Below are positions 40,394-64,000 of a DNA stretch of 64,000 nt, piece by piece. How positions within the stretch are numbered: position 1 is the stretch's first letter; every line of letters begins with the position of its first letter. The stretch is from the NCBI GenBank assembly GCA_963771075.1, contig CAVYSE010000005.1, forward strand, positions 32,001 to 96,000. The letters are read 5' to 3'. The position numbers and the translations under genes are program-made. The notes beneath the pieces are model-generated. The model searched no databases. It saw only the letters and a list, made by a program, of their open reading frames with translations, and had not been told where the DNA came from. The DNA is from a candidate division FCPU426 bacterium (lineage in GTDB: Bacteria; Oederibacteriota; Muellerivitia; Muellerivitales; Muellerivitaceae).

Positions 40394-40603
40394 GGAGCGG
40401 CGCAAACCATGGGAGCAGGTCAGGTATTTACTGGAAAATGAATCGTTTATTCTGGGGAGAGTTATTGACCATGACGGGGACCCGTCGTGGACATGGGAAA
40501 TAACTCGTTTTAACCCCGATTAGGACAGAACTTTTACCCCTCCTGTTTCGTCCTATAATTATCCAGGTGTTTGTAGTCTCGTTTTCGGGAAAGAGGTAAA
40601 GCT

Positions 40604-41419
40604 ATGAAACCAACCCATGGTTTTCCAAGTCTGTTAAAAATGGCTTTAACCTTGGCGGTTGCCTTTTTATTCAGCGGATGCGCGCAAAATCCCATGCCGC
40701 CCCTCTTCAGCCTTTACGGCTACCAGCGCCTGGCCATCATCCCCTTTGACAACAAAACGCAGGACCCGGCCTTGGCCGACGCCCTCCAGGATGAAATGGC
40801 CAGTGAGATCGTGAACCTCAACGCCCTTCCCGTCATTGAGGCGGGGCAGGTGGCGGCCTACCTGAAGTCCATCGGGGCAAAGGCTTCCGACGTGCCTACG
40901 GATCATGGATTGCGGCAACAAATCGCCCAATATTTCAAATGCGACATCTTCTTATTGGGCACAGCCGATGGATATACCGAGTTACTCAAGGATGAGGCGC
41001 CCCAAAGGTCGGACTTGGGGTGGGGCTTTTACACGGACCGCAAGGTGGTCATCACCAACAGCGCCAAGCTGATGGACCCGGCCAGTGGCGGCATCCTCTG
41101 GTTCCGAAACAAGAACTGGGGCGCCAGTTGGCACAACACATGGAACCCCCTTCCCGTTCCGCAAACAGTGGTTCTTCCGGGTCTGTTGGGCCAATTCGTC
41201 GACCTGGCTAACATGGTGTTAAACCGGGTGGACCACAATGTGGATGTTGAGCCTCCCACGGTCGACGAAACCTATTCCGGCAGCCCGATCTACACCCAAA
41301 GCAGGGCTTTTGCCAGGCAACGCCAGAAGGCCATTGTCGCCACGGTGAATTCCCTGGTGGATGACTTCCAGGGCCATTACAACTGGACGCCGGGGTTAAG
41401 GACCAACAACAACCAATAA
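40604..41419 (+). CDS. Putative lipoprotein (CsgG/LptE-like N-terminal pattern)
   Basis: Lipobox FSGC; RLAIIPFDNKT. Confidence 0.7.
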   Translation: MKPTHGFPSLLKMALTLAVAFLFSGCAQNPMPPLFSLYGYQRLAIIPFDNKTQDPALADALQDEMASEIVNLNALPVIEAGQVAAYLKSIGAKASDVPTDHGLRQQIAQYFKCDIFLLGTADGYTELLKDEAPQRSDLGWGFYTDRKVVITNSAKLMDPASGGILWFRNKNWGASWHNTWNPLPVPQTVVLPGLLGQFVDLANMVLNRVDHNVDVEPPTVDETYSGSPIYTQSRAFARQRQKAIVATVNSLVDDFQGHYNWTPGLRTNNNQ

Positions 41420-41556
41420 GGCCGCAAGTGCGGGAAATCCGGTTACCGATTCCCTTCGGAAAACAATGAAAAAATGGTATTGATTTGTCCGGGATGTGAA
41501 GCTGTTTCAAGAATTGGAACAGGGGATTTTAGCGGGACACATTGGAATTCAGAAAT

Positions 41557-42372
41557 ATGAATAAAATCCCACAAACCGTATTGAAAGCATTCAATGTTGA
41601 AGCGGAAACGCAATTGTTGGATGGCGGCCAAGGTGAATCTTTTCGGGCGGGTAACATTGTCCTGAAACCAGCCCTCCTCGAAGCCGAATGGCTTGCCGAA
41701 AACCTTAAAGACTTAAAAGAAGATGGTTTCAGAATCCCAAGGCCCGTTTCAACAAGGGATGGGAAGTGGATCTTTGATCGATGGTGCGCCTGGACTTTTA
41801 TTTATGGCCGGCATGATCCCACGCGTGTGCAAGAGATAGTCCAAACCGCGAAGGTGTTTAATGCTTCGCTCAAGGGGTTTTCCAGGCCGGATTTTCTGGA
41901 TCAACGGCAGGATCCTTGGGCCATAGCGGATCGAATGGCATGGGGTGAGATTCCAATAGCTTGCCACCCCTCCCTTATGGTACCGATCAATAGAATTTCC
42001 GAACTTTTAAAACCGATTGATCTGCCGAGCCAGCTTATCCACTGTGATCTTATCGGCAACGTTCTTTTTGAGGATGAACATGCACCTGGAGTCATTGATT
42101 TTTCCCTTAACTGGCGGCCTCCCGATTATTCCCTCGCCATTATTGTGGTTGACGCAATGAACTGGAATGGCGCTGATGAATCAGTTCTGCGATATATTGG
42201 TGATGTTCCTGATTTTTTTCAGCTTTTGATCAGAGCCCAAATATTCCGCCTGGCTGTTTTGGAAGGATTTCGTCAAAGAGGGGCGGACATATCCCGAGGA
42301 ATAAGAGGAGAAGAAAGAACCGTTGAACTGATATGCGGAAAGCTCAAAGATAAATACCACAAAACTGCTTAA
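41557..42372 (+). CDS. APH-like phosphotransferase-family protein
   Basis: LDGGQG, VLKP, IHCDL.GNVLF, IDFS. Confidence 0.8.
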   Translation: MNKIPQTVLKAFNVEAETQLLDGGQGESFRAGNIVLKPALLEAEWLAENLKDLKEDGFRIPRPVSTRDGKWIFDRWCAWTFIYGRHDPTRVQEIVQTAKVFNASLKGFSRPDFLDQRQDPWAIADRMAWGEIPIACHPSLMVPINRISELLKPIDLPSQLIHCDLIGNVLFEDEHAPGVIDFSLNWRPPDYSLAIIVVDAMNWNGADESVLRYIGDVPDFFQLLIRAQIFRLAVLEGFRQRGADISRGIRGEERTVELICGKLKDKYHKTA

Positions 42373-42453
42373 GTAGGTTGTCCGCGACGGGGACCCATCG
42401 CGAACATCTAATGTGGGTTGGAGTTATACGATGGGCTATCGTATAATTAAGCT

Positions 42454-42669
42454 ATGAAAGTCACCGCGCTATTACCCGATAAACTAGTACGGGAAGTCCA
42501 AGGTTTTGCCAAAGGCAAAAACCTCACGGAATCGCTCGTCAAAGCATTATCGGAATGGAACCAACAACAAAAAATCAGGGATTTGAATCAACTGGTTCTT
42601 GAGCATCCCCTGGGTTTCTCCAAAACTTTTTCCGCCCCTCGCGTTCGAGCCAAAAACAGAAAATCATGA
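42454..42669 (+). CDS. Putative VapB-type antitoxin
   Basis: Small RHH-like protein (MKVTALLPD.LV); overlaps the PIN toxin start. Confidence 0.75.
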   Translation: MKVTALLPDKLVREVQGFAKGKNLTESLVKALSEWNQQQKIRDLNQLVLEHPLGFSKTFSAPRVRAKNRKS

Positions 42670-43040
42670 TCCTTGTCGATACCTCCATTTGGGTGGAGTT
42701 TCTCAAGGGGCATCAACCCTATTTTGATCAAATGAAACAATTGTTGGAGGAACGCCAAGTCCTTGCGGTCGAACCTGTTTTCGGCGAATTGCTCCAAGGA
42801 GCTAAAGATGACCGTGAAAGGCGGATTCTTCAGGGATTTTGGGAAAATCTTCCCAAAAATAAAATACAGGATGCCTGGGTGAAGGCGGGGGAATTATCCT
42901 CCCGAAAAAAATGGAGTGATCGCGGAATCGGATTGATCGACGTGGTCTTGATTATTTCCTCTCGGGATTCAAACGCAAAGATTTGGTCTTTAGATAAGAA
43001 GTTAAATAGCGTATTGCACAAGAATGAGATTTTTGAATAG
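42666..43040 (+). CDS. PIN-domain (VapC-like) toxin
   Basis: ILVDTSIW, ELLQG, GLID, WSLDK. Confidence 0.88.
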   Translation: MILVDTSIWVEFLKGHQPYFDQMKQLLEERQVLAVEPVFGELLQGAKDDRERRILQGFWENLPKNKIQDAWVKAGELSSRKKWSDRGIGLIDVVLIISSRDSNAKIWSLDKKLNSVLHKNEIFE

Positions 43041-43140
43041 CTTTGCTTGTTTACGATGAGGTCCCATCGTGGACATGAAAAATCATGGATAATGGGCTTG
43101 GTCTCCTTGTTCCACTATCCCAGTGAAAGGTAGTAAATAA

Positions 43141-44754
43141 ATGAAATACCAATGGTTGTTCGCGTTCTTGCTTGCAGTTCCATCCTGGGCCCTTCCCGCC
43201 GACAAGGCATTTGAATTATTTCCTCCGGCCAATAACGCCGCGCCGGAGACCTTTACCAAGGCGGTCCAACCCTTCCCGGCGGAGGGCAAGCCCTGGAAGT
43301 TCGCTCATGGCGCCAAGGTCCAGGTCAAGGTGGATGCCGCGCAGGTTCTGCAAAAGATCACCCCCTATCAATTCGGGTCCAATCTCGCCTGTTGGGATAA
43401 CAAACAATTCGTGAACGACCCGGATTGCCAGGAAAAGGTCAGGCAGGCGGGCATCCGGTTCTGGCGCTGGCCGGGAGGCAGTACCTCGGACAACTACCAT
43501 TGGGATGGCAAGTATGGGGACCATACCAAGGACCATGACGGGGGGAACCCGCCGAATATGAACGAACCCTGGGCCGCCTCCACCGACGATTTCATTTCCT
43601 TCTGCCAGAAGACGAATTCGGAAGCCATCGTGACGGTCAACTACGGCGCAGCCCGTTATGAGAATGTCCGGTACGCGGCCGACCTGGCCGCCCGGTGGGT
43701 GCATTATTTCAACTTCGAGAAGAATTTCAGGGTGCGTTATTGGGAGATTGGCAACGAGAATTTCGGGTCCTGGGAAGAGGGGAACCAGCTGGCAGGCAAA
43801 TCGCAATTGACCGGCGATGTCTATGGCAAGGATTTCCAGGTGATCGCCTCGGCCATGCGAAAAGTGGACCCGGACATCTTTATCGGGGCGGTGGCCGTGG
43901 ACAAGGACAGCGGGGATGATTGGAATGGTTACCACTGGTGGATGAGGGGCCTTCTGCCCCAGCTTCAACGGAAAGCCGATTTCCTGATCTTCCATGAATA
44001 TTTCATATGGCCCTTCGATGGCGCGAAAAACTATACCAATCCCAGCAACCAGGTTCTTCTGTCGAACCTTCACGAGATCCCCGACGCCAAGGCCGCTTTC
44101 GATGACATGGAAGACAAATACGCGCCGACCGAGAAGGGTTTGCCCATCGCCGCGACCGAGTTCAACATGATCAACGGCGATCCCCCCCAGACGATCCAAC
44201 TGTTGAACGGGTTATTTGCGGCGGAAGCCCTGGGGGAGATGATCAAGACGGGTTTCAAAAATTCCAACATCTGGGACCTGAAGAACGGCCTGGATGAGAA
44301 GCTCAAGGGGGACCATGGCTTGCTGGCCTATGGGGACTCCCGGATTCCGGCGGGTACACCCCGGCCGACCTATTACACTTACGCCCTTTATTCCCGGGCT
44401 TTCGGGGACACCCTGGTTTCGGCGGAGAGCGCGGACCCAACGGTAAAGATCTATGCCAGCCGTTTTTCGGGCGGGGAACTGGGTTTGGTCATCGTGAACG
44501 AGAATGACCAGAACCGCACGGCCGTTTTTGACCTGGCGGGGTTCAAGCCCCAGGGAAAACTGATGGGATGGGTCATGACCGGCAAGAATCTTAATGATTT
44601 TCAGGTTTCGTGGAACGGCGAAATGGGACCGGCGGGAGGGGGAGGGCCCTATCCCATCCAGACGATCCCGCCATACCGGGCCGTCTTCAAGACCAATCAA
44701 CCCCTCCAGCTACCCTTGCAAGCCAGGTCGGTTACGGGCCTTATCCTTTATTAG
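43141..44754 (+). CDS. Secreted clan GH-A-type glycoside hydrolase
   Basis: Signal peptide, RWPGGS.SD.YHW, YWEIGNE (acid/base), ATEFN (nucleophile), C-terminal beta domain. Confidence 0.8.
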   Translation: MKYQWLFAFLLAVPSWALPADKAFELFPPANNAAPETFTKAVQPFPAEGKPWKFAHGAKVQVKVDAAQVLQKITPYQFGSNLACWDNKQFVNDPDCQEKVRQAGIRFWRWPGGSTSDNYHWDGKYGDHTKDHDGGNPPNMNEPWAASTDDFISFCQKTNSEAIVTVNYGAARYENVRYAADLAARWVHYFNFEKNFRVRYWEIGNENFGSWEEGNQLAGKSQLTGDVYGKDFQVIASAMRKVDPDIFIGAVAVDKDSGDDWNGYHWWMRGLLPQLQRKADFLIFHEYFIWPFDGAKNYTNPSNQVLLSNLHEIPDAKAAFDDMEDKYAPTEKGLPIAATEFNMINGDPPQTIQLLNGLFAAEALGEMIKTGFKNSNIWDLKNGLDEKLKGDHGLLAYGDSRIPAGTPRPTYYTYALYSRAFGDTLVSAESADPTVKIYASRFSGGELGLVIVNENDQNRTAVFDLAGFKPQGKLMGWVMTGKNLNDFQVSWNGEMGPAGGGGPYPIQTIPPYRAVFKTNQPLQLPLQARSVTGLILY

Positions 44755-44978
44755 GTCGATAAGGTTGGCTTTCGACCGCAGCCGATAGATTAAACAGGTC
44801 TTGGACTGCCAATAAACCTTTTGTTACTTGTCCACGACGGGGACCCGTCGCGGACAGGTAATTCGAACCATGCCAACCCCCTTTTCAGGTCAAAGATTGA
44901 AGAGGTTTTAGATCCCATTGCAGGATTATCGATATAATGATATCATGATATCGTTACCATTCATTTGGGAGGAGACCC

Positions 44979-45230
44979 ATGGCCCAACTCATCGTTAGAA
45001 ATTTAGATGACAGCGTGAAGATGAAGCTGAGCCAAAGGGCCCGGAAGAATGGGCACAGCACGGAGGAAGAAGTACGGGATATCTTGAGAAACGCGGTAGG
45101 AAAAGATAGGGGCCTCGCCCCCATGCCATTGGGCGCCAGGTTTAAGGCGCGGTTTAGCAAGATAGGCCTAACTAGGGAAATCCCCGAATTGCGTGGACAG
45201 CAGGCCCAACCCGCCACCCTTGTCCCATGA
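44979..45230 (+). CDS. FitA-like RHH antitoxin
   Basis: MAQLIVRNLDD...RA..NG.S.EEEVRDIL. Confidence 0.88.
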   Translation: MAQLIVRNLDDSVKMKLSQRARKNGHSTEEEVRDILRNAVGKDRGLAPMPLGARFKARFSKIGLTREIPELRGQQAQPATLVP

Positions 45231-45646
45231 TCCTGCTCGATACAAATGTCCTTTCCGCATTGATGCTTCGGGAACCGGACCCTACGGTCGTTTCATGGCT
45301 GGATCGCCAGTCCGTTGAATCGGTTTGGACAACGACGATCACGGTATTTGAAATTCGGTTTGGCCTCGAGAACCTGGCGGGTGGGAAAAGACGGCGTCAG
45401 CTGGAAGAAATTTTTAACCAAACCCTGGAAATTGATTTGGAAGGCCGAGTCCTGCCATTTGACCTGGCCGCGGCCCGGGCGTCTGCCTCGATCGCGGCCC
45501 AACAAAGAAAAAGTGGGCGTCCGGTTGAGATACGAGATGTCCAGATTGCCGGGATCACTTTGGCCAGCAAGGCTACATTAGCCACCCGCAATATCCGGCA
45601 TTTCCAAGGGCTTGGTATCCATCTGATCGATCCCTGGAAAGCCTAG
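45227..45646 (+). CDS. FitB/VapC PIN toxin
   Basis: ILLDTNVLS, EIRFG, D.QIAGI, LATRN..HF, IDPW. Confidence 0.92.
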   Translation: MILLDTNVLSALMLREPDPTVVSWLDRQSVESVWTTTITVFEIRFGLENLAGGKRRRQLEEIFNQTLEIDLEGRVLPFDLAAARASASIAAQQRKSGRPVEIRDVQIAGITLASKATLATRNIRHFQGLGIHLIDPWKA

Positions 45647-45694
45647 CCTGTCCACGATGGGGACCCGGATTGGTCAAAGAAAGAAGGTTAGACA

Positions 45695-45973
45695 ATGGTA
45701 AATAAAAAGACGGTTGTGATGAAGATAAACATCAAGGCGTTCGGATTGGCTTGTGGTTTGTTGTGGGGTCTGGGAGTTTTAGGCCTGACTTGGTGGGTCA
45801 TCCTTTTCGAGGGGCCAACCCACGACCTGATGTTGCTTGGACACATCTACCGGGGTTATGACATCAGCCCCGCCGGAAGTTTGATTGGGACTGCTTATGG
45901 CCTGGTGGATGGAGGGGTGGGCGGCGTCGTTTTCGCCTGGCTTTATAACCTCCTCTGCGTCAAGTTCAAATGA
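45695..45973 (+). CDS. Small 2-TM membrane protein (holin-like size and topology)
   Basis: KAFGLACGLLWG...YRGY....GSLIG..YG..DG...AWLYN. Confidence 0.7.
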   Translation: MVNKKTVVMKINIKAFGLACGLLWGLGVLGLTWWVILFEGPTHDLMLLGHIYRGYDISPAGSLIGTAYGLVDGGVGGVVFAWLYNLLCVKFK

Positions 45974-46023
45974 TCAGGTGTTGAGGAATAGCTTGTCCAC
46001 GATGGGGACCCTTCGTGGACATC

Positions 46024-48000
46024 GTGCCAGCGAAGGTTTGTAGAGCCAGCAGGTGAGGGAGTAGGCCGAAGAGGGCCAGCCCAAATCCTGACCAGGTAAT
46101 CGCCAGAGAGCCTGGAAGTCAGCCCCCGGCGTAGGACCGAGAGGTTCTGCCCGAAACGGGGTCATAAACCTCATTCAGTGAGGGAACAATCTAGCAGTCC
46201 GCAACATCAAGTGAATCCTGCCGCGTCGTGAATGGGACACCGAAAGGTGCAAGAGGATGCCGAGCCGCGTGTCTACCGGCGAAGGCCACGATCCCGCTGA
46301 AGAATCTGGAGCAAGCGGGGCAAGTCCTCCGGCGTATGGGGAACGGAATGCTGGAAAGGCTTTGCAAGCAACCTGGGAGATCCTACCCGCCAAAAGACTT
46401 GCCGCTATAAGGCTAAAACCGAAAAGGGGCAAGGGCGGGAGGAAGTCGGAGGGGGTCACAATACCTGTGAAGGGTGGACAACAAAACCACCTGGAGGGAA
46501 GGACCCCTGCTTCAACCAAGCAACCTTCAAAAGGGAGGCGCTGGAGCATGCCCCAAAGGGCCAACAACTCCGAAGACAAGGCGCGAACCCTTCAAAGGGC
46601 GCTATACCGAGCGGCCAAGAGGAGCCCAAGCCGGAGATTTCATGTACTGCATGACAGGATGACCCGATGGGATGTCCTGACAGCGGCATGGAAACAGGTG
46701 AAGGCTAATAAAGGCCAAGGAGGAGTGGACGGGGAAACGCTGGAATGGATCGAAGAGAAGGTGGGAATTATTCCATTCCTGAAGGGCATCCAGGAAGAAC
46801 TCAAAGCTGGGAAGTATCTGCCTAAACCTGTGAGACGAGTGGAAATACCCAAGCCTGATGGAAGCAAGAGACCGTTGGGAATCCCGGTAATTCGGGATCG
46901 GGTAGTTCAAGCGGCTTGCCGGAAGGTGGTGGAACCCATCTTTGAGGCGGACTTTCTGGAAGGCTCGTTTGGATTTCGGCCAAAACGCGGAGCCCAGCAG
47001 GCCCACCGGGAGATCAAGAAGTGGATCAATGGCGGGTACAGATGGGTGGTGGATGGAGATATTCGGAAGTATTTCGATTCCATCGACCACGACAAACTGA
47101 TGGTGCTGGTGCGCCAGAGGATCAGTGACCGGAAGGTTTTGAAACTGATCCGAGGGTGGCTGAAGGCGGGTGTGTTTGAGGAAGGAAGGCTTACGCCGAC
47201 TCTCCGAGGGACACCGCAAGGCGGGGTGATCTCACCGCTGTTATCCAATGTTTACCTTCACTTGCTGGACAAGGTTTGGAATAAGAGGCACAGGAAACTG
47301 GGTAGGCTGGTGCGCTACGCCGACGATTTTGTGGTGTTGTGCGGAAGCCAAGCCCATGCGGAAAAGAGCCTGGAAGTCATCAAGGAATTGATGGGACGAC
47401 TAGGGCTTGAACTGCACCCCGAAAAGACACGGCTGGTGGAAATGGGGCCTGGGAAGGAAGGGTTTGACTTCCTTGGGTTCCACTTTCGAGTAGGTATGCC
47501 GGTGGTAGGATTGGGTAAGACCTGTTGCCTGAGCTGGCCGAGCCGGAAGGCCATGAAGAAAATCGCCGAGAAAGTGAAGCAGATGACGGCGGGCCGAGAG
47601 CGGCTCTTATCTCCAATGGAGGATGTAGCGAAGGCTTTGAACCCGGTGTTAAGGGGGTGGGCCAACTATTTCCGAATTGGGGACAGCCAGCCATACTTTT
47701 CCAAGCTTCAATTTTACGTACTCGAAAGGCTGACTTTGTTTCGGAGGCATAAGTACGCCTGGGAAGGACGAACATGGTCGATCGAGGAAGTGAAACGCCT
47801 TGGTTTGAACTGGATTCCAGCTTTTGCCTTGAATGCTGCCGGTTGAAAGGTTGTCGGAAAGCCGTATGATCGAAAAGGTCACGTACGGTTTGATGAGGGG
47901 GCGCTGGAAACGTGGTGATGAGAGCCGGACTGAGGCCCAATCCGAAAGGGTTGGATTCGCCACCGTACTCTAAGGCATACGCGCCAGCGCTCTACTCTGC
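46024..48000 (+). mobile_element. Group II intron, copy 1 (1977 nt)
   Basis: 5' GTGCC; RT ORF; domain V GAAAGCCGTATG...CACGTACGGTTTG; domain VI ending CTACTCTGC. Boundaries set from the three-copy comparison plus the GUG start and branch-A spacing. Confidence 0.92.
46548..47846 (+). CDS. ltrA: Group II intron reverse transcriptase/maturase, no endonuclease domain
   Basis: RPLGIP..RDRVVQ, GFRP, GTPQGGVISPLL.N, RYADD, FDFLGF, LRGWANYF. Start placed at 46548. Confidence 0.95.
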   Translation: MPQRANNSEDKARTLQRALYRAAKRSPSRRFHVLHDRMTRWDVLTAAWKQVKANKGQGGVDGETLEWIEEKVGIIPFLKGIQEELKAGKYLPKPVRRVEIPKPDGSKRPLGIPVIRDRVVQAACRKVVEPIFEADFLEGSFGFRPKRGAQQAHREIKKWINGGYRWVVDGDIRKYFDSIDHDKLMVLVRQRISDRKVLKLIRGWLKAGVFEEGRLTPTLRGTPQGGVISPLLSNVYLHLLDKVWNKRHRKLGRLVRYADDFVVLCGSQAHAEKSLEVIKELMGRLGLELHPEKTRLVEMGPGKEGFDFLGFHFRVGMPVVGLGKTCCLSWPSRKAMKKIAEKVKQMTAGRERLLSPMEDVAKALNPVLRGWANYFRIGDSQPYFSKLQFYVLERLTLFRRHKYAWEGRTWSIEEVKRLGLNWIPAFALNAAG

Positions 48001-48036
48001 ACGAAAAGTCACGCATAAGAGGCAGTTTATGATTAG

Positions 48037-48456
48037 TTGGCCAATTTGAAAAAGATTAAACCCTGGGTGAAATTTTGGTTATTCGCAGGAACTTTATTAT
48101 TTGGTTACGTGTTTTGGGGGTTGGTTGAAGAAGTTGCTTTCAATAATCGATTTTTTATCCCCACTTTGAGTTCTCGGATGGTTCGGTTAACCGGGTTCAT
48201 TCATTTTCGCATAATCGACTTTTGGTGTTCCAATTGTATCTACGTTTTAGACAGTTCTGGCTCCCAAATTAAAGTGATCGTTCCCCAAAAAGTCCAAGAC
48301 GAAGTTCGGAGAACAAATTGGGGAGATTTAAAAAAGAACGGGAAAACAGTATTTGTTGACTTGAATGCAATATCTGGGGGTCTCGGGGATTATTATGTTT
48401 GTACGAGAGTCAATTCGATTAATGTCGTTGATGGAGTTGTTTCAGTAAGCAAATAA
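48037..48456 (+). CDS. Hypothetical cassette protein (N-terminal TM)
   Basis: AT-rich ORF filling the space between intron 1 and the repeat at 48471. Confidence 0.6.
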   Translation: MANLKKIKPWVKFWLFAGTLLFGYVFWGLVEEVAFNNRFFIPTLSSRMVRLTGFIHFRIIDFWCSNCIYVLDSSGSQIKVIVPQKVQDEVRRTNWGDLKKNGKTVFVDLNAISGGLGDYYVCTRVNSINVVDGVVSVSK

Positions 48457-48550
48457 TTCACATGAAGAGCTGTCCACGACGGGGACCCGTCGTGGACGAT
48501 GTTTTTAAGTTTATTACCCAAATTATAAGTTCTTTCAGATTGGATGTTTT

Positions 48551-49936
48551 ATGAAGAACCGATGGCAATGGGCGGTGACGATTGGGGCTGTCCCACTCTA
48601 TTACCTCCTTTCGCTTATTCCTCTTTATCATTACCCTAATTTTACTAATTCCCATGTAGGCAATCCGCCTATTGGATTGTTCGCACTTGGCCCAACACCG
48701 ATCTATAGTGGTTTTGTATTTGTAGAAATCATTTCCATCCTGGTCAATCCTTTAAAGCGATGGAGAACACAAGGGATGGCAGGCAGGGAAAAAATACATC
48801 GAGTTCAGCTTATTTTTATGTTTCTTGCAGCCATGTTTCAGGGATGGGGCACGGGTGAACTTATTAAAACTTTTGGCCCCGATTACACGGTGGAAATATT
48901 TGGAACGACCGGACTAGCCGCTCAAATTATTCTGTGTTCCTGTTTGGTTAACGGCGTCTTGATCTTCTACTTGATCGCTACAAATGTGTCCCTGTATGGT
49001 TTGTTCAATGGTTTTATTCTTTTCCTTTTCGTACGGCCCCTGGTGTCGAAAACTCTGGGTCTCATCGATGGAATCCAAACGGACTTACGCTTGCCCGTTG
49101 ACCTTCACTTTTCTAATTTTGATGAAAAAATGAATTTTATATATTTCTTTTTCGTCCTTGTAGGCGTGGGGTTTGTTCTGTACCAAAAACGAAAGAAAAT
49201 ATTAGAACTTATTTATCATTATGTGCTTCGTAACCCATTGGTTGGCTATCAAACAAAAGAAAAATTGTATCAAGTGAAAACTTCGCCCGTTCCTCAAACG
49301 TTAACGGGTGGTTTGGGTGTTTTGGTGCTGATTCTACAAATGGTTTTGTACCAACATGGCGCTTTTTCGGATAACGGGACTTTGCGAAATGTGCTATGGG
49401 TCGGGGCGGATATGATTGATCTGGGTGTGACATCTTTTTTACTTTGGCTTTTATTTACCAACACCTACTGGGTCGATCATCATCTGGAAGGACGGGCGTC
49501 TTGGCTTCCTGAACGGGACAAATTGAAGCCTTATTTTATTTTTTGGCTTGTGATGTCCGCTTTCGCAGTATTAATAAATGAGTCACCATTGTTTTTCCAT
49601 TTTTCATTAACTATTGAAAAATTGAGCCGTATTTTTCTTGAGCCTATTTTCATCCTGACGACGGTCATTTTAGGGATAGAAATTTACGAAAAATGGCAAT
49701 TCGAGCAAAGGTCGATTCAAAAAGTATGCCTGGCCGAAATGGATAATGTGGAATTGGTCCAGCTTTGGGTGGCCCAACTTGAAGAGGCGAATCTTTCCTT
49801 TCATGTGGAGGGCCTTCGTTATAGGCAACTTACGCAATTCTTTGCGCCTTATTTGAAAATGAGGCTGTTTGTGGATGAAAGTCAGGCCCAGGACGCGGTA
49901 AGCATCATTCGTTTAGAAGAAGTTAAGCAAATATAA
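48551..49936 (+). CDS. Polytopic membrane protein with SecY-like N-terminal half and DUF2007-like C-terminus
   Basis: GLFALGPTPIYSG..., G..GR.KI, A.FQG, YGLFNG resemble SecY TM2-TM5 motifs. Confidence 0.6.
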   Translation: MKNRWQWAVTIGAVPLYYLLSLIPLYHYPNFTNSHVGNPPIGLFALGPTPIYSGFVFVEIISILVNPLKRWRTQGMAGREKIHRVQLIFMFLAAMFQGWGTGELIKTFGPDYTVEIFGTTGLAAQIILCSCLVNGVLIFYLIATNVSLYGLFNGFILFLFVRPLVSKTLGLIDGIQTDLRLPVDLHFSNFDEKMNFIYFFFVLVGVGFVLYQKRKKILELIYHYVLRNPLVGYQTKEKLYQVKTSPVPQTLTGGLGVLVLILQMVLYQHGAFSDNGTLRNVLWVGADMIDLGVTSFLLWLLFTNTYWVDHHLEGRASWLPERDKLKPYFIFWLVMSAFAVLINESPLFFHFSLTIEKLSRIFLEPIFILTTVILGIEIYEKWQFEQRSIQKVCLAEMDNVELVQLWVAQLEEANLSFHVEGLRYRQLTQFFAPYLKMRLFVDESQAQDAVSIIRLEEVKQI

Positions 49937-50057
49937 TGTGGGAGTTCGCTGTCCACGATGGGGACCCGTCGTGGACAAGCTTTAGTCACAAGGCCAAGAT
50001 GAAAATTCAAAATGGGTGATTATTGAAAACTGAGAAGGTGGAAAGAAGCTTAACCCA

Positions 50058-50558
50058 ATGGAAAATTCTTACAATTTAGAAAAAACTATTTGGTCAGAAG
50101 CCGACTTTGAAAAAATGTGTTGGCATGATGTTCATGTCCATGGAATTTCGTTTGGGCCAATGTCGGAAGAAAACGGAACGGCCGATTTTTTATTTGATAT
50201 TGATTACCTCTTTGAATGGATAAAACCCATTGCGCCTGAAATTTTCTATAGCTTTTGGATAGCCCCATGCACTCTCGTTTTTGAAAACGCGTATGACTTT
50301 AAAATGCAAATAGAAGACAAAATAGGTTTTGCTTTCGGTCCCTTTGTAATAGAAGATTTTTCAATGGCTGAGAACCTGGAACGGGATGGCGTTCATTACG
50401 GTTACCGTTGGAAAATCAAACTTAGAACCGGGTGGATAGAATTGAAATCCTACGGATTAAAACAATACGTTCGCCAAAAACCGAGAGTGGGTGGCCAATG
50501 GTTGTTATTTGAAGAACGGGCCGGTGTGAATTATCAAAAAAAATATTCCGGGTCGTAA
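50058..50558 (+). CDS. Hypothetical cassette protein
   Basis: AT-rich ORF between the repeats at 49950 and 50563. Confidence 0.75.
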   Translation: MENSYNLEKTIWSEADFEKMCWHDVHVHGISFGPMSEENGTADFLFDIDYLFEWIKPIAPEIFYSFWIAPCTLVFENAYDFKMQIEDKIGFAFGPFVIEDFSMAENLERDGVHYGYRWKIKLRTGWIELKSYGLKQYVRQKPRVGGQWLLFEERAGVNYQKKYSGS

Positions 50559-50592
50559 GGGTTGTCCACGATGGGGACCCATCGTGGACATC

Positions 50593-52569: not shown

Positions 52570-52610
52570 ATGAAAAGTACCAATGGAGCGTCTGATAGGG
52601 TGAGGTATTA

Positions 52611-53588: not shown

Positions 53589-53612
53589 AAGGTTGCTATG
53601 AGGCCATTCCTC

Positions 53613-53802
53613 AAGTTCAATTAAGCCCACCCGTCAGCCTTTTGGTTTCGCGGATTCACGCTGCTATTCGTGCTCGAGGCACAAGTTAAAAATTCGATAA
53701 TCCAGTAGGGAAGCCACCAGCTGTCCATCGTGCCTTACGGCACCACCAAATTCCGTGGTCATTCCAAAGGGATCGAATCACAAAACCGAGGCTGAAACCT
53801 CT
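53613..53802 (-). ncRNA. Candidate seek/bridge RNA of the IS1111-type element
   Basis: Two similar hairpin units 60 nt apart, each next to a 7-mer: one matches the target repeat, the other the predicted circle junction. Confidence 0.65.
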
Positions 53803-54873
53803 TTAGCGCATGGGCCGATACACTTCCTTCCGAACCAACATCGTCCAAAGGTGAATCAAAAGCTTGTGCGCCATTGCCACAATCGCCTTGTTGACGTGTC
53901 CCGTATTACGGACCAGTCGACGAAAAACACGGTAGGCCTGGGTATCCTTTTGGATCCATGACCAGGCCGCTTCAACCAAGGTCGCTCTCAAAGTGCCTTT
54001 TCCGGCCTTCTGTAAATGGCCTTCCTTCCGGGTTTCACCGCTTTGCCTGATCCTAGGGGCCAACCCCACGTAAGCCGCCACTTGTTTGGCGTTTTCAAAG
54101 CGTTCCGGCTGGTAAATCTCCGTTAATACTTGCAGGGTCGTCACTTCGCCCACTCCTGGGTGGGTTCTCAGGATCTTGGCCTTTTTCTCGTAGGCCTTCT
54201 CCTTCATCATGACCCTCAAACGTATGTTCACGTCCTTGAGCTGCCTATCAAAGTAAAAAAGATCTTCCAATAGGCGATCCAAGGTGAACCTCAGGGCAGG
54301 TGGCAGTTCCATTTCCCGTAATATCCCAATGGCTTCGTGGGTCCAGTAATCCAACCCTCTGGGAGTTTTGAGCCCATATTGAAGGAAGAAGCTCTTGATC
54401 CTTTGTTTGGCCTTGCGTTTCTGCTCGACCATCGCGTTCCTCAAACGAACCACCTGCCGGTCAGCTTCTTCCTGGAGGGTTGGGATCGCCACCGCCTTCA
54501 GCAATTCTTTCTCCGCATACTCCGCCAGTTTGCTACAGTCCAAACGGTCGGATTTTGTTTCAAACTGCGACACGCGAGGAGTCTTGTGCGGGGCGATGAC
54601 ATCCAATGGGTATCCCTCCTCCCGAAGGCGGCGGGCCAGGCCAAAACCGGTAGGGCCTGCCTCGTAGACGACCTTTTTCAACCCCACCCGATAAGGCGCC
54701 AGGACCTTCACCACCGCCTCCCAGTCCGCTGTCAGGGACTTTGTTCCGACTTCCTTTCCGTTAATCCTGATTGCCATATAAATACTTCGTTTGTGGACAT
54801 CCAATCCCACAAACACAGCGTCCCGCTTGGATACCTCCTTGCCTCGGTATCCTTTTTTGCTAATCTGTTTCAT
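53803..54873 (-). CDS. IS110-family DEDD transposase/recombinase
   Basis: VGLDVHK, YEAG, KSDRLD, PGVG, YVGL.P...QSG, A..A.A.KL. Confidence 0.95.
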   Translation of the reverse strand: MKQISKKGYRGKEVSKRDAVFVGLDVHKRSIYMAIRINGKEVGTKSLTADWEAVVKVLAPYRVGLKKVVYEAGPTGFGLARRLREEGYPLDVIAPHKTPRVSQFETKSDRLDCSKLAEYAEKELLKAVAIPTLQEEADRQVVRLRNAMVEQKRKAKQRIKSFFLQYGLKTPRGLDYWTHEAIGILREMELPPALRFTLDRLLEDLFYFDRQLKDVNIRLRVMMKEKAYEKKAKILRTHPGVGEVTTLQVLTEIYQPERFENAKQVAAYVGLAPRIRQSGETRKEGHLQKAGKGTLRATLVEAAWSWIQKDTQAYRVFRRLVRNTGHVNKAIVAMAHKLLIHLWTMLVRKEVYRPMR

Positions 54874-55059
54874 GGCCATTCCTCCTTGTGAGTTGCCTGC
54901 TCACCGGGACTAGTTTAATCCCGGCGGAGGAATGGCCTTCATGTTACCTGTCCACGACGGGGACCCGTCGTGGACACCTAATTCTGACGTGGCTTTGGAT
55001 AAACCTCTTTGCTTTAGTCATGGGTGATAAGGACTGAATTTTAGGACGAAAGGAAAACC

Positions 55060-55644
55060 ATGAAAACCGTTCTTGTTATTTTAGCATTGATCGTTTTGGT
55101 TTTTTTCTTTTGGAAGTTCAAATCCCGGCGTCTTTTTGACCCGGAAGCCCTCATGCCGGGTTACGCACAGAAGGCCATCTCGACCGCCAAGGAAAAGTAT
55201 GGCCTCACTTTGGATCTGGACGAAAAAAACTTGAAAGTTCTTGAGATGAAAATTATGAGGCCGCTAAGTGAAGAGTTTAAGAAAAAAGCCTTATCGGACG
55301 AAGAACTTGCGAACAATTGCATTCTTTGGGGGGCTTATCTGGGGGAAATGTTAAAGAAGGCTTCGCCCTACTGGTCTCAGGCCCATTGGAGATTAAATGA
55401 TTCAGAAAAAGGCCAACAAACAATTAATCCAAACCAGATTGGTTTGGCGGGAAAGGATTTTGTGGTTTATCCCGGTGCTTGGGTTCAAAAACATATCGAA
55501 GACCCTATAAACGATAATTTCGTGGGAAAGTATGAATTAGCTTATCAACTGCCAAACACGGATCAGAATAAAAAGGGCACTCAGGGTCAGCTGATAGATA
55601 AAGATGGGAACCCTATCAAAATGCGATATATGCCTGAAAAGTAA
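55060..55644 (+). CDS. Hypothetical cassette protein (N-terminal TM; GAYLGE motif)
   Basis: RBS AAGGA; fills the interval between the repeats at 54949 and 55663. Confidence 0.75.
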   Translation: MKTVLVILALIVLVFFFWKFKSRRLFDPEALMPGYAQKAISTAKEKYGLTLDLDEKNLKVLEMKIMRPLSEEFKKKALSDEELANNCILWGAYLGEMLKKASPYWSQAHWRLNDSEKGQQTINPNQIGLAGKDFVVYPGAWVQKHIEDPINDNFVGKYELAYQLPNTDQNKKGTQGQLIDKDGNPIKMRYMPEK

Positions 55645-55692
55645 TAGATTGTTTGGTGAAGTTGTCCACGACGGGGACCCATCGTGGACGTC

Positions 55693-57669
55693 GTGCCAGC
55701 GAAGGTTTGTAGAGCCAGCAGGTGAGGGAGTAGGCCGAAGAGGGCCAGCCCAAATCCTGACCAGGTAATCGCCAGAGAGCCTGGAAGTCAGCCCCCGGCG
55801 TAGGACCGAGAGGTTCTGCCCGAAACGGGGTCATAAACCTCATTCAGTGAGGGAACAATCTAGCAGTCCGCAACATCAAGTGAATCCTGCCGCGTCGTGA
55901 ATGGGACACCGAAAGGTGCAAGAGGATGCCGAGCCGCGTGTCTACCGGCGAAGGCCACGATCCCGCTGAAGAATCTGGAGCAAGCGGGGCAAGTCCTCCG
56001 GCGTATGGGGAACGGAATGCTGGAAAGGCTTTGCAAGCAACCTGGGAGATCCTACCCGCCAAAAGACTTGCCGCTATAAGGCTAAAACCGAAAAGGGGCA
56101 AGGGCGGGAGGAAGTCGGAGGGGGTCACAATACCTGTGAAGGGTGGACAACAAAACCACCTGGAGGGAAGGACCCCTGCTTCAACCAAGCAACCTTCAAA
56201 AGGGAGGCGCTGGAGCATGCCCCAAAGGGCCAACAACTCCGAAGACAAGGCGCGAACCCTTCAAAGGGCGCTATACCGAGCGGCCAAGAGGAGCCCAAGC
56301 CGGAGATTTCATGTACTGCATGACAGGATGACCCGATGGGATGTCCTGACAGCGGCATGGAAACAGGTGAAGGCTAATAAAGGCCAAGGAGGAGTGGACG
56401 GGGAAACGCTGGAATGGATCGAAGAGAAGGTGGGAATTATTCCATTCCTGAAGGGCATCCAGGAAGAACTCAAAGCTGGGAAGTATCTGCCTAAACCTGT
56501 GAGACGAGTGGAAATACCCAAGCCTGATGGAAGCAAGAGACCGTTGGGAATCCCGGTAATTCGGGATCGGGTAGTTCAAGCGGCTTGCCGGAAGGTGGTG
56601 GAACCCATCTTTGAGGCGGACTTTCTGGAAGGCTCGTTTGGATTTCGGCCAAAACGCGGAGCCCAGCAGGCCCACCGGGAGATCAAGAAGTGGATCAATG
56701 GCGGGTACAGATGGGTGGTGGATGGAGATATTCGGAAGTATTTCGATTCCATCGACCACGACAAACTGATGGTGCTGGTGCGCCAGAGGATCAGTGACCG
56801 GAAGGTTTTGAAACTGATCCGAGGGTGGCTGAAGGCGGGTGTGTTTGAGGAAGGAAGGCTTACGCCGACTCTCCGAGGGACACCGCAAGGCGGGGTGATC
56901 TCACCGCTGTTATCCAATGTTTACCTTCACTTGCTGGACAAGGTTTGGAATAAGAGGCACAGGAAACTGGGTAGGCTGGTGCGCTACGCCGACGATTTTG
57001 TGGTGTTGTGCGGAAGCCAAGCCCATGCGGAAAAGAGCCTGGAAGTCATCAAGGAATTGATGGGACGACTAGGGCTTGAACTGCACCCCGAAAAGACACG
57101 GCTGGTGGAAATGGGGCCTGGGAAGGAAGGGTTTGACTTCCTTGGGTTCCACTTTCGAGTAGGTATGCCGGTGGTAGGATTGGGTAAGACCTGTTGCCTG
57201 AGCTGGCCGAGCCGGAAGGCCATGAAGAAAATCGCCGAGAAAGTGAAGCAGATGACGGCGGGCCGAGAGCGGCTCTTATCTCCAATGGAGGATGTAGCGA
57301 AGGCTTTGAACCCGGTGTTAAGGGGGTGGGCCAACTATTTCCGAATTGGGGACAGCCAGCCATACTTTTCCAAGCTTCAATTTTACGTACTCGAAAGGCT
57401 GACTTTGTTTCGGAGGCATAAGTACGCCTGGGAAGGACGAACATGGTCGATCGAGGAAGTGAAACGCCTTGGTTTGAACTGGATTCCAGCTTTTGCCTTG
57501 AATGCTGCCGGTTGAAAGGTTGTCGGAAAGCCGTATGATCGAAAAGGTCACGTACGGTTTGATGAGGGGGCGCTGGAAACGTGGTGATGAGAGCCGGACT
57601 GAGGCCCAATCCGAAAGGGTTGGATTCGCCACCGTACTCTAAGGCATACGCGCCAGCGCTCTACTCTGC
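55693..57669 (+). mobile_element. Group II intron, copy 3
   Basis: Same sequence as copy 1 by inspection (offset 9669). Confidence 0.92.
56217..57515 (+). CDS. ltrA: Group II intron RT/maturase
   Basis: Translation identical to copy 1. Confidence 0.95.
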   Translation: MPQRANNSEDKARTLQRALYRAAKRSPSRRFHVLHDRMTRWDVLTAAWKQVKANKGQGGVDGETLEWIEEKVGIIPFLKGIQEELKAGKYLPKPVRRVEIPKPDGSKRPLGIPVIRDRVVQAACRKVVEPIFEADFLEGSFGFRPKRGAQQAHREIKKWINGGYRWVVDGDIRKYFDSIDHDKLMVLVRQRISDRKVLKLIRGWLKAGVFEEGRLTPTLRGTPQGGVISPLLSNVYLHLLDKVWNKRHRKLGRLVRYADDFVVLCGSQAHAEKSLEVIKELMGRLGLELHPEKTRLVEMGPGKEGFDFLGFHFRVGMPVVGLGKTCCLSWPSRKAMKKIAEKVKQMTAGRERLLSPMEDVAKALNPVLRGWANYFRIGDSQPYFSKLQFYVLERLTLFRRHKYAWEGRTWSIEEVKRLGLNWIPAFALNAAG

Positions 57670-57695
57670 ACCTTTTTTAGTGTTAAGGAGGTTTA

Positions 57696-58313
57696 ATGGT
57701 AGCCCAATTTCCCGATATTACCTTTGAAGGTCCGCTCATATCAGATCAAAATTTTCTAAACGCTCTCCCTGAGGATTTAAAATCAATTCTCAAAATAAAA
57801 AATGGTTTTATCGCTTTTGCCGGTGGATTTCACATGAGAGGGATTTGCGAAGAACCTAGTTGGCATTCGTGAGAACTGTTTTGGACCGGTAAGCATTCCT
57901 TTTCGAAATTGTATTCTTCTATTCAAAAAGACGATGTACCTTTTGGACAAGATTGCTTGGGTGATCAGTTTATTTTAAGAAAGAACCAAGTATTACGTCT
58001 TAGGGGTGAATCGGGAGACATTGTAGATATGAAAATGGATTTATTAACTTTCTTGGATGAAGCTGAATCAAATCCTTTTGATTTATTAGAACTAGCTCCT
58101 TTGAAGCGAATTCAAAACGAAGGAAAAAAACTGGAGCCCGGCCAATTAATTAATGTGTTTCCTCCCTTTATTACCGCAGAGAGCCGTAAAGGCGTTTCAT
58201 TGAAGCCAATACCAACCGTCGAAAGAATCTTGTTTCTTTCCGATCTTGCTAAACAAATTTCCAATATTTCTGACGGTACACAAGTTAAATTCAATATAAG
58301 CTCTAAGGGGTAG
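57696..58313 (+). pseudogene. SMI1/KNR4-like immunity-type cassette gene with a premature stop
   Basis: RBS AAGGAGG and ATG at 57696 in frame with the 57909 ORF; TGA at 57870-57872; LP.D, NGF, PFGQDC.GDQF. Confidence 0.65.
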
Positions 58314-58382
58314 TTTGAGGGCTTAGCGATTGTCCACGATGGGGACCCATCGTGAACAAGGGAATTATGAGGTTTGTAATAA

Positions 58383-58607
58383 ATGAATAGGTTAAAAAAG
58401 ATATTAAAGATTTGTGGTTATGCTATCGGCACCTTATTGGTTCTTTTCTGTCTTGCGCGGTTTTGTCTATTCGAATTCATAAATGTCATAAACCCGAGAG
58501 TGATATTAGGGGAGATCGCCTCTCCGCAAAAGACTTATATATTCCGTTTTTTACCGGACGACGAGCAGTTTCATGACTTTGTGGGTTTCCCGACTGCCGG
58601 TTCGTAA
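58383..58607 (+). pseudogene. Probably truncated cassette ORF
   Basis: AT-rich ORF with N-terminal TM that runs into the 3' end of the GC-rich opposite-strand gene at 58551. Confidence 0.45.
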
Positions 58608-61600: not shown

Positions 61601-61725
61601 ACGTCGGTGGCGTTGTCATAATCCGCGATGTTATTTCCGAAGATGCTGATGGGGATAAAAGACGACACGGTGACGGCGGAGTTGATGGTGATCGTGGCCG
61701 GCAGGGCCTGGGCCATGGGAGGCAT
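58551..61725 (-). CDS. Large secreted GH-A-like protein: catalytic domain with discoidin insert, Pro/Thr linkers, CBM11/CIA30-like module and PNP-type C-terminal sorting-like domain (two frameshifts near 59585 and 59390)
   Basis: YWEIGNE, DGN.STAW.S discoidin motif, TPT repeats, LVDDFED, YPNP...LANGLY...KLLVVR; signal-peptide-like codons upstream of 61725. Confidence 0.75.
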
Positions 61726-62365
61726 GAAGGCCGGGTAGGCCGCCGCGAAAGCCAGGAAGGTTAGGATCGGCTTTATGTTTTTCAGGTGGGACCATCCCTT
61801 TTGGCCAACACGGCGTTAAAAGGGCGCGAAAACGCTTTTTCCCGCGGCATCCTTCATAATTATTAGATGCCGATTTTCGCGAAAGTGTCGCCGGAGAAGG
61901 GCTGTTTTCAAGGAATGGCGGGTTTCTTGGCCCAAGTCGGGGTTGGAGCCGTACAAATAACCGGGAAAATAAACAAGATGGGATAAAAACCGAAGATTGT
62001 TATGAGGGTGTGAAATTTTCCTGCATATGGTTCTCGTTAAAAGGATGGTGTGCAACCACGTACAACCAGCTCAACCAGAATTCCCCGGGCCTGGCCCCTT
62101 TGACTCTTTGAGCCCCTACGTCCCTGTGAAAAGTTTTAAATGTTGGCCCCTTTGACTCCAGTTCTCGACCCTACGGGACCCAACATGGACAACAAAAAAC
62201 AGATCAAGGGGAATAGACCTCTTGGTTTTGCGCGAATAGGTATTACAGGTATTATAATTTTTTCACCTGTTTCTATTGCCTTTGCAAGCCCCCATACTCT
62301 CCCGGCTAAACCTTGTCGAAAGATTTTGTTGGATCGAAGGTTTTAAATAGAAAAAAGGTCATGCC

Positions 62366-63031
62366 ATGAAACGCCGCCCCTTCGGTTTATTTTCCAACGA
62401 TAAAATTTCATCGCTTTTAGCGGTTAGTTTCTGGCTGGTGTTGCTCCCCCATGGGGTCTTCGCCCAATCCAACGCGGATTGGCAGCAGATCAAGCGCAAT
62501 TGCGGGCTTGATCCCGGCCTCGCTTACAACACCTGGGTCGCGCAAGGCATGCCTTGCAACAACGGCGGCGGCGCTCAAGCCCAGCCGGTCGGCCCCTCCC
62601 CGGAACAAATTCGCCAAAACCAGCTTATCGCGGACGCGAGGGCTCTCAACCAAAAGGGCTTGGATGCCTTCGAAAGCAACGACTACGACGCCGCGCTCGG
62701 TTTTTTTCAACAGGCCTTGGATAAAACGCCCAACGATACGGGGATTCAGCAAAACCTCCAAAACGCCCAGAATAAAATCGACGAAAGGAATAAGTTCAAT
62801 CAAAACAAGCAGGATGCCCTCAATGATCTCAAGGACCCTTCCGGCGCGAATGGCGGGAATTCGGACACCGGCTTGAAAGACGCGGTGTCGGATCAAGGCG
62901 ACTCCTCGGCGGACGGTCAAGGCCTCAAGGACATCCATGTTGATGCGGTCAAACAGGCGGACCAAGTCCATCAAGATCCCGATGCGTTTAGAACAACGGG
63001 GTCAGGTCTTCATTTTATAATAACTTTGTGA
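62366..63031 (+). CDS. Secreted TPR-containing protein, probably 3'-truncated
   Basis: Signal peptide AQS; NQKG..AF...DYDAA..FFQQAL...P TPR; last codons read through the element end at 62998. Confidence 0.65.
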   Translation: MKRRPFGLFSNDKISSLLAVSFWLVLLPHGVFAQSNADWQQIKRNCGLDPGLAYNTWVAQGMPCNNGGGAQAQPVGPSPEQIRQNQLIADARALNQKGLDAFESNDYDAALGFFQQALDKTPNDTGIQQNLQNAQNKIDERNKFNQNKQDALNDLKDPSGANGGNSDTGLKDAVSDQGDSSADGQGLKDIHVDAVKQADQVHQDPDAFRTTGSGLHFIITL

Positions 63032-63043
63032 TAAGATCCGCAA

Positions 63044-63604
63044 ATGGCTAGACCGTTAAGAGTGCATTATGAAGGCGCTGTTTATCACGTTACCTCGCGG
63101 GGGAACGAGCGGAAAAACATTGTCCGGTCGGATAAGGACCGGGAATTGTTTTTGTGGGTATTGGCCCAAGTCGTGGAGGATCATCATGTGATGTGCCATG
63201 CCTGGGTATTGATGGATAATCATTACCACTTGTTGGTGGAGACGCCGGAAGCCAACTTGTCACGGGCCATACGGCACCTGAATGGTGTTTATACCCAGAA
63301 ATTCAATCGGCGGAATAACCGCAGAAAAAGGGGCCAGGCCTACATATTACACTTTACGTGAAACGCGTCTATCTTGAGGAGGGTCGGGAAGGTGTATGGG
63401 GAAAAGCCGGAGGAGGTATTGAGGGCGGGGCGCAGGAAAAGCGTGGCGCGGGCGGTGGCGATTTACCTGCTCAAGAAGGAATCGGGTTTGAGCCTGGGGG
63501 AAATCGGAAAAAGGATGGAGGTCGGTTTTTCGGCGGTGGGGAACCAATGGTCGAAGATCAAAAAAAGCTGTCCGAGGACCCTGAATTTGGCCGGATGGTT
63601 CTAA
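63044..63604 (+). pseudogene. HUH/Y1 (RAYT-like) transposase remnant with C-terminal HTH, internally deleted
   Basis: MARPLR....GAVYHVTSRGN, LMDNHYHLL; breaks after FNRR and resumes as AR.VAIYLLK...LSL.EIG; the catalytic Tyr region is absent. Confidence 0.85.
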
Positions 63605-63628
63605 AGTGTAAAATGTAGGCCTGGCCCC
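63330..63628. repeat. 27-bp inverted repeat pair of the RAYT-like element
   Basis: GGGGCCAGGCCTACATATTACACTTTA (63330-63356) vs TAAAGTGTAAAATGTAGGCCTGGCCCC (63602-63628), 26/27 complementary; related GGGGTCAGGTCTTCATTTTATA at 62998. Confidence 0.85.
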
Positions 63629-64000
63629 TATGTTACACGGAACCCGTCACCACCCAAAAACCCGCGGGGCTCGTGATTGACCTCTCCCGTGAGCCGGAGT
63701 CGAAGGGGCTTGTGACCGGGGTGAGGGAAATGGTTTTTCCGGGGAAAAAGGGTAACCCGTAAAACAATTTTTTAAGCACTTCAAGAAAAGATCCAATTAC
63801 AAAGAAATAATTTTTATGCTCTTGCCTGCTCATGGCGGCGGCTCCGAAAACGACCCCTTCAACCCGCCCCGCAGGGCGGTACGGCTGGTCGCGCCGTGAG
63901 GGAAGCGGTTGTTTTAGCGGCCAAACTAGGGTGACCACTAAATCGGGGGAAGTCCACACGACTAAAGGGGTAAAATAGCCGTTATCGGGTTGTCTACGAT

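Follow-up and report, generated by a model that had tools for sequence, protein, structure and literature searches.

A 28-bp palindromic repeat delimiting gene cassettes in Muellerivitales, with a short serine recombinase as its candidate enzyme

In integrons and in clusters of attC sites lacking an integron integrase (CALINs), co-oriented accessory cassettes of one or two genes, toxin-antitoxin pairs among them, each have a site after the stop codon; the arrays occur with and without a linked recombinase, and both group II introns and IS110-family insertion sequences (IS) target the sites. The pdif modules of Acinetobacter, recombined by XerC and XerD, are shuffled through a mid-site crossover at 28-bp sites and hold toxin-antitoxin and accessory genes, as set out in PMC13141974. 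We found that these properties recur in a 64,000-nt stretch of DNA (hereafter the window) from a candidate division FCPU426 bacterium of the order Muellerivitales (assembly GCA_963771075.1, contig CAVYSE010000005.1, forward-strand positions 32,001 to 96,000, which is C5:32001-96000 of the source genome G000, C denoting its contigs), where a 28-bp palindromic repeat delimits a row of gene cassettes. The system resembles an integron or a pdif set in its working, yet its sites are not those that define them, and neither, most likely, is its enzyme. Our data suggest that the repeat is quite probably a double-stranded site-specific recombination site whose enzyme is a short serine recombinase. We found no description of serine-recombinase cassette arrays in the open-access literature, with subscription journals largely outside that search.

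The differences from integrons and CALINs concern both site and enzyme. The repeat is a fixed 28-bp palindrome without the RYYYAAC and GTTRRRY ends; none of the 12 whole window sites has both attC ends (R'' in none, a match to R' in one). Crossover is central, at positions 12-17, and not at G/TT in the right-hand core, hairpin covariation is slight, and the candidate serine recombinase lies downstream and head-on, whereas the integron enzyme is upstream and divergent. Our comparison set comprised 32 genomes of the order (G labels) together with genome and metagenome loci (L010-L208 and further L loci). The IntI model TIGR02249 at E<=1e-40 had no match in 32 of 32 genomes, the control genomes likewise giving no positive, and the order's Xer-like protein scored 75 bits against a TIGR02249 cut-off of 265. 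In contrast to pdif sites, the arms are mirror copies without an ATAA/TTAT core, one invariant centre stands in place of varied 6-bp spacers, and orientation is direct throughout arrays that are chromosomal. Large serine integrases (LI/A118, Bxb1, phiC31, TP901-1 and SPbeta, with CcrA/B) share with the candidate enzyme the catalytic and recombinase domains, approximately 55% identity to full-length relatives across the two domains and an asymmetric central dinucleotide; unlike them, the recombinase here is short, without zinc ribbon or coiled coil, and one short symmetric site type occurs in dozens of copies rather than as one attP/attB pair. Repetitive extragenic palindromic (REP) sequences and REPINs with their RAYT genes are similar in that a short palindrome of approximately 100 extragenic copies is an IS110 and intron target, but the repeat described here is clustered in accessory arrays, polar, exchanged at its centre and not found flanking RAYT genes. 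Units of 349-2582 nt with genes also differ from the 25-50-nt spacers of clustered regularly interspaced short palindromic repeats (CRISPR). The first-pass annotation of the window had proposed a cassette system of directly oriented sites that is neither attC-based nor CRISPR, and co-orientation, shuffled units and the site ends bear this out.

The 28-bp site and its distribution

The site consists of two 13-bp palindrome arms around a central GA (13+GA+13). Of the 11-6-11 layout proposed at first, the length of 28 bp and the central exchange stand, but the palindrome extends into the middle six bases. A consensus search of the window returned 10 sites at three or fewer mismatches, against 0 expected from shuffles, and the genome scan, at 3-4 mismatches, brought in a further two whole sites and the incomplete one; together they agree with the annotated count of 12 complete copies plus a thirteenth truncated at the window edge, all in plus orientation, with no site before 40 kb. 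The annotated distance of 2-74 nt past a same-strand stop codon was recovered for 11 sites, and the remaining one, split by an IS110 element, starts 5 nt past the stop at 53588 after removal of the IS110. With introns removed, the intervals in the window measure 317-1885 nt.

We asked how far the repeat extends beyond this array. Using a weight matrix built from 87 close copies, a site threshold of at least 14 bits and clusters defined by gaps under 6 kb, we found 106 sites in 28 clusters on 15 contigs of G000 and 0 in the reversed genome. The repeat is thus genome-wide but not scattered in both orientations, since 94 of the 106 sites lie in clusters of two or more and 74 of 78 neighbouring sites are co-oriented. 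Across all loci, 330 of 338 neighbouring sites are co-oriented, and the median unit is 732 nt long (the range given above being the 5th-95th percentile, n=327). At 383 of 424 sites, the 150 nt in front include the end of a same-strand open reading frame (median distance 20 nt), versus 155 of 427 on the mirror-side control. The 58 intron-free intervals of G000 have a mean GC content of 47%, versus 53% for the genome. The left 18 bases, with at most one mismatch, occur in 30 of the 32 genomes at 0-96 copies each, with one control match in total. Outside the order, a 17-base pattern with two mismatches gave counts that were mostly low or near control, one genome having 27 versus 3, nearly all of them two-mismatch. 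Exact whole sites were present in 55 genome-contig stretches (one under Candidatus Firestonebacteria) and at least 132 metagenome stretches, while viral contigs had neither a site match nor a match to the recombinase patterns. Among the matches listed for the same-genus genome G002, single genes or toxin-antitoxin pairs stand in rows between sites. At C26:138321-143694 of G000, three cassettes are nearly duplicated in inverse around an intron fragment, which is either a true inversion or an assembly artefact.

The central GA is present in 482 of 501 sites, and the left arm and core are well conserved while positions 19-22 of the inner right arm are variable. No built-in promoter was apparent in the form of a fixed TATAAT spacing downstream, and an Rfam scan matched an S-adenosylmethionine (SAM) riboswitch and intron domains exclusively. 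Mirror-position Watson-Crick pairing is near independence: at positions 10/19, 316 pairs were observed and 303 expected, a weak excess over all contexts (p 0.04, the contexts being non-independent) with an odds ratio of 1.0 within G000. Such slight covariation, together with the central crossover, gives no support to recombination through single-stranded hairpins, which the first-pass annotation had offered as an option. It also bears on a REP-like account, in which a hairpin is spread by a RAYT-type HUH transposase and shuffling is the work of that enzyme or of host recombination between repeats. Most copies can indeed fold as a hairpin, hairpin repeats are known as targets of group II introns and IS110, both of which target this repeat, and four of the 17 RAYT-like matches in G000 lie within 3 kb of a site. 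However, the inverted repeats that flank the RAYT genes are distinct from this one, 12 of the 17 matches are more than 6 kb from any site or on site-free contigs, and the nearest site is at least 0.9 kb away; in addition, exchange falls at the hairpin tip and not at its foot, the copies are single and co-oriented without inverted doublets, and 28 bp is short for RecA-type exchange. We consider this account very improbable. The RAYT-like types of G000 are multi-copy with their own terminal inverted repeats and behave like IS, and two such elements, nested and broken, lie at 63020-63630 of the window.

Unit shuffling and the point of exchange

A comparison of 545 distinct site contexts, taken from G000 and from loci L010-L208, gave 153 pairs with the upstream DNA in common, 257 with the downstream DNA in common (intron copies included) and 5 with both. 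Among the pairs listed, many match at 100% over the 300-400 nt leading to the site and are unrelated past it, so cassette order differs between loci with breakpoints within the repeat, as the first-pass annotation had led us to look for. The crossover was mapped with introns excluded and a flank identity of at least 97%, the pairs being non-independent. In 18 shared-downstream pairs, within-site differences fall at positions 1-11 exclusively, and in 17 shared-upstream pairs there are 3 differences at positions 1-17 and 35 at positions 18-28; the pattern persists at 93% and 88% flank identity. The left arm therefore moves with the preceding unit and the right arm with the following unit, with the exchange at positions 12-17, where comparative resolution ends because those positions hardly vary. 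These sequence comparisons show that units are shuffled within and between genomes and place the exchange in positions 12-17. It is very likely that the repeat-delimited units are cassette arrays with a central crossover.

The mapped interval is exactly the central 6 bp, which is a point in favour of a different enzyme, namely the conserved Xer-like tyrosine recombinase of the order (C6:114198-115235), which would move cassettes on an 11-6-11 site in the manner of Acinetobacter dif modules. Its gene occurs in 23 of 24 family genomes and in the one other genome of the order searched, with approximately 30% identity outside, a range that matches that of the site, and genomes in which the serine recombinase is missing still have it. 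However, in 10 of 10 loci the Xer-like gene has a different near-perfect 11-6-11 palindrome 29-63 nt upstream, with an ATAA-N6-TTAT core and arms that change together, whereas no cassette site was found in the examined Xer-like loci. The cassette site shares nothing with this core, and its centre is palindromic save two bases. The Xer-adjacent palindrome is most simply the substrate or operator of the Xer-like protein, unrelated to the repeat; xerS, for comparison, is paired with its own dif site. According to PMC13141974, pdif sites moreover have distinct XerC and XerD arms and alternating orientation. Together these points make the Xer/dif reading, to which the first-pass annotation had linked the layout, an unlikely one. 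The single Xer-like recombinase of the order (C6:114166-115235; L213, L239-L248) has a XerS/dif-like single-recombinase layout, with a similar site at C12:14579, and is one of 8 tyrosine-recombinase matches in G000, the others being, by eye, 3 tandem RIT-type and 4 element-type integrases.

A short serine recombinase as the candidate enzyme

A recombinase encoded outside the window had been predicted, and a candidate was found. The sole resolvase-domain gene of G000 is an intact gene for a 277-residue serine recombinase (C8:80002-80835), of which three further copies are 5'-truncated. Each of the four stops 14 nt short of the head-on site with which an array ends. The distance from the stop codon or end of the match to the head-on site is 14 nt in G044, 34 nt in G004, 8 nt in G024, 14 nt in G021 (a fragment) and approximately 17 nt in G046 (frameshifted), and in G020 the stop faces a right half-site after the end of another intron, the left half not being located. 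Thus, in 7 of 7 carriers among the 32 genomes the gene is head-on and within approximately 55 nt of the last site of an array (a half-site in G020), and further records of identical DNA in other collections did not add to this count; a recombinase remnant in L082 fits the same layout. Among 26 resolvase-family loci in the order, 5 are the short recombinase, 4 of these with a whole site, while the other 21 (stretches of 1.7-3.4 kb) have no site of at least 14 bits; four long relatives likewise have no site in 20 kb. Genomes with the gene or its remains have a median of 63 sites (7 genomes) versus 5 in the 25 without, kin being non-independent.

The short recombinase is a family in its own right rather than a broken gene: 19 database clusters of 275-283 residues match it at 68-96% identity, with the next matches at or below 61%, and in a quick tree built from 60 rows trimmed to 285 residues the short proteins form one side of a branch with an SH-aLRT support of 99. 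They contain PF00239 and PF07508, the catalytic motifs R18-V19-S20 and D89-R90-L91-Y92-R93 are invariant in the alignment, and 20 of 20 short proteins stop at the linker that precedes the zinc ribbon. The ratio dN/dS is 0.045-0.157 in the 12 pairs, out of 15, that have a finite dS, and the predicted structure (pLDDT 78.5) matches serine integrases and resolvases. A search of 50%-identity representatives placed long relatives on top, with no second short clade that could be confirmed, and plasmids had distant recombinases exclusively (best 32% among the matches listed). ArdC and RadC genes lie upstream of the recombinase in G000, G020 and G044, which points to a mobile element as its carrier. 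A non-coding block of approximately 500 nt, 72-77% alike between copies, precedes the short recombinase and genes of the RadC/ArdC region (C8:79430-79910, C8:77580-78068, C8:89425-89912 and C12:16809-17294); it is possibly a single-strand promoter of the leading-region kind.

According to PMC3783163, the recombinase domain of LI integrase contacts 13 bp, positions 16-24 are read by the zinc ribbon, and the coiled coil is what imposes attP x attB pairing and sets direction. A protein without zinc ribbon and coiled coil would be expected to read 13+2+13 bp and pair any two sites. We think it fairly likely that the system is an independently evolved counterpart of the integron, in which a serine integrase of phage type, having lost the domains that control direction, came to serve as a general shuffler of cassettes at dozens of identical 28-bp sites throughout the chromosome and mobile elements of the whole order. 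The mobile cassette would be a right half-site, one or two genes and a left half-site. The enzyme, made up of a catalytic and a recombinase domain, would have its gene head-on to some arrays, at their downstream end, beside mobile-element genes of the ArdC/RadC type; a dimer would bind the 13-bp arm pair of each site and cut at the central GA, whose asymmetry would keep sites and cassettes in a single orientation. Without a coiled coil any two sites could recombine, such that cassette circles would be excised and re-inserted at any other site. Arrays without the gene, that of the window included, may be served in trans from the intact C8:80002-80835 or be dormant like CALINs. Orphan arrays are common among integrons.

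Several observations weigh against this proposal. The crossover window of positions 12-17 also fits a 6-bp tyrosine overlap. A symmetric dimer leaves unexplained why positions 19-22 of the inner right arm vary far more than their mirror positions, and positions 12, 13 and 17 beside the core are conserved as strongly as GA itself. Excised circles were sought in four contig-only runs with patchy cover, which gave no reliable joint and no evidence either way on excision (the 8 joints, all with sides below 30 nt, came from a single run and are accounted for by repeats), and metagenome loci L081-L208 had no small circular contigs or terminal repeats. The gene is broken in 2 of the 7 carriers, as are three of the four G000 copies at their 5' ends, the window array has no recombinase at its end, and in L140 the recombinase has the same direction as the site that comes next, at 110 nt. 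The short gene was not found in G001, G002, G003, G008, G018, G041 and G014, with 19-46 sites each in incomplete assemblies (86-99% complete), and G002, G003, G008, G018 and G041 have no resolvase-family match of any kind. Furthermore, any cassette gene adjoins a site, and therefore adjacency alone is no proof of a recombinase role.

The seven site-rich genomes and the asymmetry of the two arms also favour another account, in which the cassettes are real but their enzyme is some other, unrecognised protein, with the short serine recombinase as cargo or by-product. The placement of the gene is unlike that of cargo, given that it is antisense to the cassettes and terminal, with no site on its far side within 6-10 kb in G000, G004, G020, G024 and G044, and no other tested family (other resolvases, IntI and ParB-like proteins) tracked the sites. 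We hold this account to be improbable. As a fixed array head, a ParB-like gene was rejected: it lies approximately 230 nt ahead of a site at 5 of 16 places of G000, IS110 interrupting one of them, yet just 3 of 27 loci from other genomes have any site. Its product is a large ParB-like protein that has membrane helices and, at the C-terminus, an unassigned domain, with 23 matches in G000 (window 63631-63990 and the starts of C3, C9, C13 and C21 among them); behind several copies, the first site of an array stands at approximately 230 nt.

The window array, its cargo and its insertions

The array begins just after thiM, as annotated. The thiM orthologues of five of five relatives have no site in the surrounding 10-20 kb stretches, and the thiM-adjacent array is therefore particular to G000. 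All sites and units are on the plus strand. Site 1 (40466..40493), the array head, lies 72 nt past thiM and has a degenerate left arm. Unit 1 (40604..42372) holds a lipoprotein-like gene of no family and an APH-family phosphotransferase; homologues of the first gene in L080 and L115 have a site directly after them, 29-38 nt on. Site 2 (42379..42406) is followed by unit 2 (42454..43040), an antitoxin-like gene and a PIN toxin (Pfam). This 641-nt PIN unit recurs from site to site in L010, 89% identical over 636 of 641 nt, with ends 4 and 2 nt from the sites and different neighbours, and also in L107 and L257. Site 3 (43048..43075) has GT in place of GA at its centre and precedes unit 3 (43141..44754), a secreted glycoside-hydrolase-like gene with a weak ArfA match below cut-off. 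After site 4 (44829..44856), unit 4 (44979..45646) encodes a FitA-like antitoxin and a PIN toxin; in L136 it is 88% identical across all 792 nt, beginning at a site with a different upstream neighbour. In total, 3 of the 11 window units have cassette-type homologues among the comparison loci. The Pfam matches back both PIN toxins and the phosphotransferase as annotated, while the gene called immunity-like has no Pfam match.

Site 5 (45649..45676), a right-arm variant, is followed by unit 5 (45695..45973), a small membrane protein above cut-off for the holin_4 model, and by site 6 (45994..46021). Directly after site 6 stands the first group II intron copy (46022..48000, plus strand, 1979 nt, with a reverse transcriptase/maturase), then unit 6 (48037..48456), a hypothetical gene of 38% GC, and site 7 (48471..48498). 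Unit 7 (48551..49936) is a membrane protein with a SecY-family match, an odd cassette cargo. Between site 8 (49950..49977) and site 9 (50563..50590) lies unit 8 (50058..50558), a hypothetical gene of 39% GC. Intron copy 2 (50591..52569, plus strand), identical to copy 1, precedes unit 9 (52611..53588), a hypothetical membrane gene, after which an IS110 element on the minus strand (53596..54948) is inserted at the first TG of site 10 (54949..54976), which the IS110 end restores through a shared TG core. Unit 10 (55060..55644) is a hypothetical gene, and site 11 (55663..55690) is followed by intron copy 3 (55691..57669, plus strand), again identical to copy 1, and unit 11 (57670..58330), a gene of 37% GC that has an in-frame stop near 57870 and no Pfam match. 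Site 12 (58331..58358) is the final site of the regular array. The array had been annotated as running past 64000, and the copy at 63991 is real, but the regular array stops at 58358; 58551-61725 holds two minus-strand, GC-richer genes without sites, and site 13 (63991..64000, cut by the window edge and whole at C5:95991) heads a second, decayed stretch. It follows a 3' remnant of the ParB-like/membrane gene with approximately 230 nt (63631..63990, plus strand), which precede a site at four other places in G000. Upstream of the array, the SAM riboswitch at 35866-35997 precedes a gene for a pyridoxal-phosphate-dependent enzyme and is ordinary.

Eleven of the 12 intron copies in G000 lie directly after a site, 7 on its sense side and 4 antisense, and the twelfth starts a contig. 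The intron seems to start two bases before the usual GTG, to end in GC rather than AY, and to insert after either palindrome end, while at L253:11090-11130 in G020 a second group II intron class is apparently inserted inside a site, near its centre, and not after it. Group II introns at attC sites have been described (PMC7923331). On C9, a second IS110 copy occupies the same position, the first TG, of another site. The non-coding end of the window IS110 (53596-53802) carries a short copy of the first six bases of the site, as would be expected of a bridge-RNA target guide.

If the enzyme assignment is true, unrelated parts gave rise to gene-cassette capture on a second occasion, and a whole pool of accessory genes escapes the tools that find integrons. 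How cassettes first form is an open question for which the system is a second example, with 7 of the 11 placed intron copies sitting between a site and the next gene in sense direction. A compact 277-residue recombinase with a 28-bp site is a possible genetic tool, and the system is a natural test of the role of the zinc ribbon and coiled coil in the direction of serine integrases.

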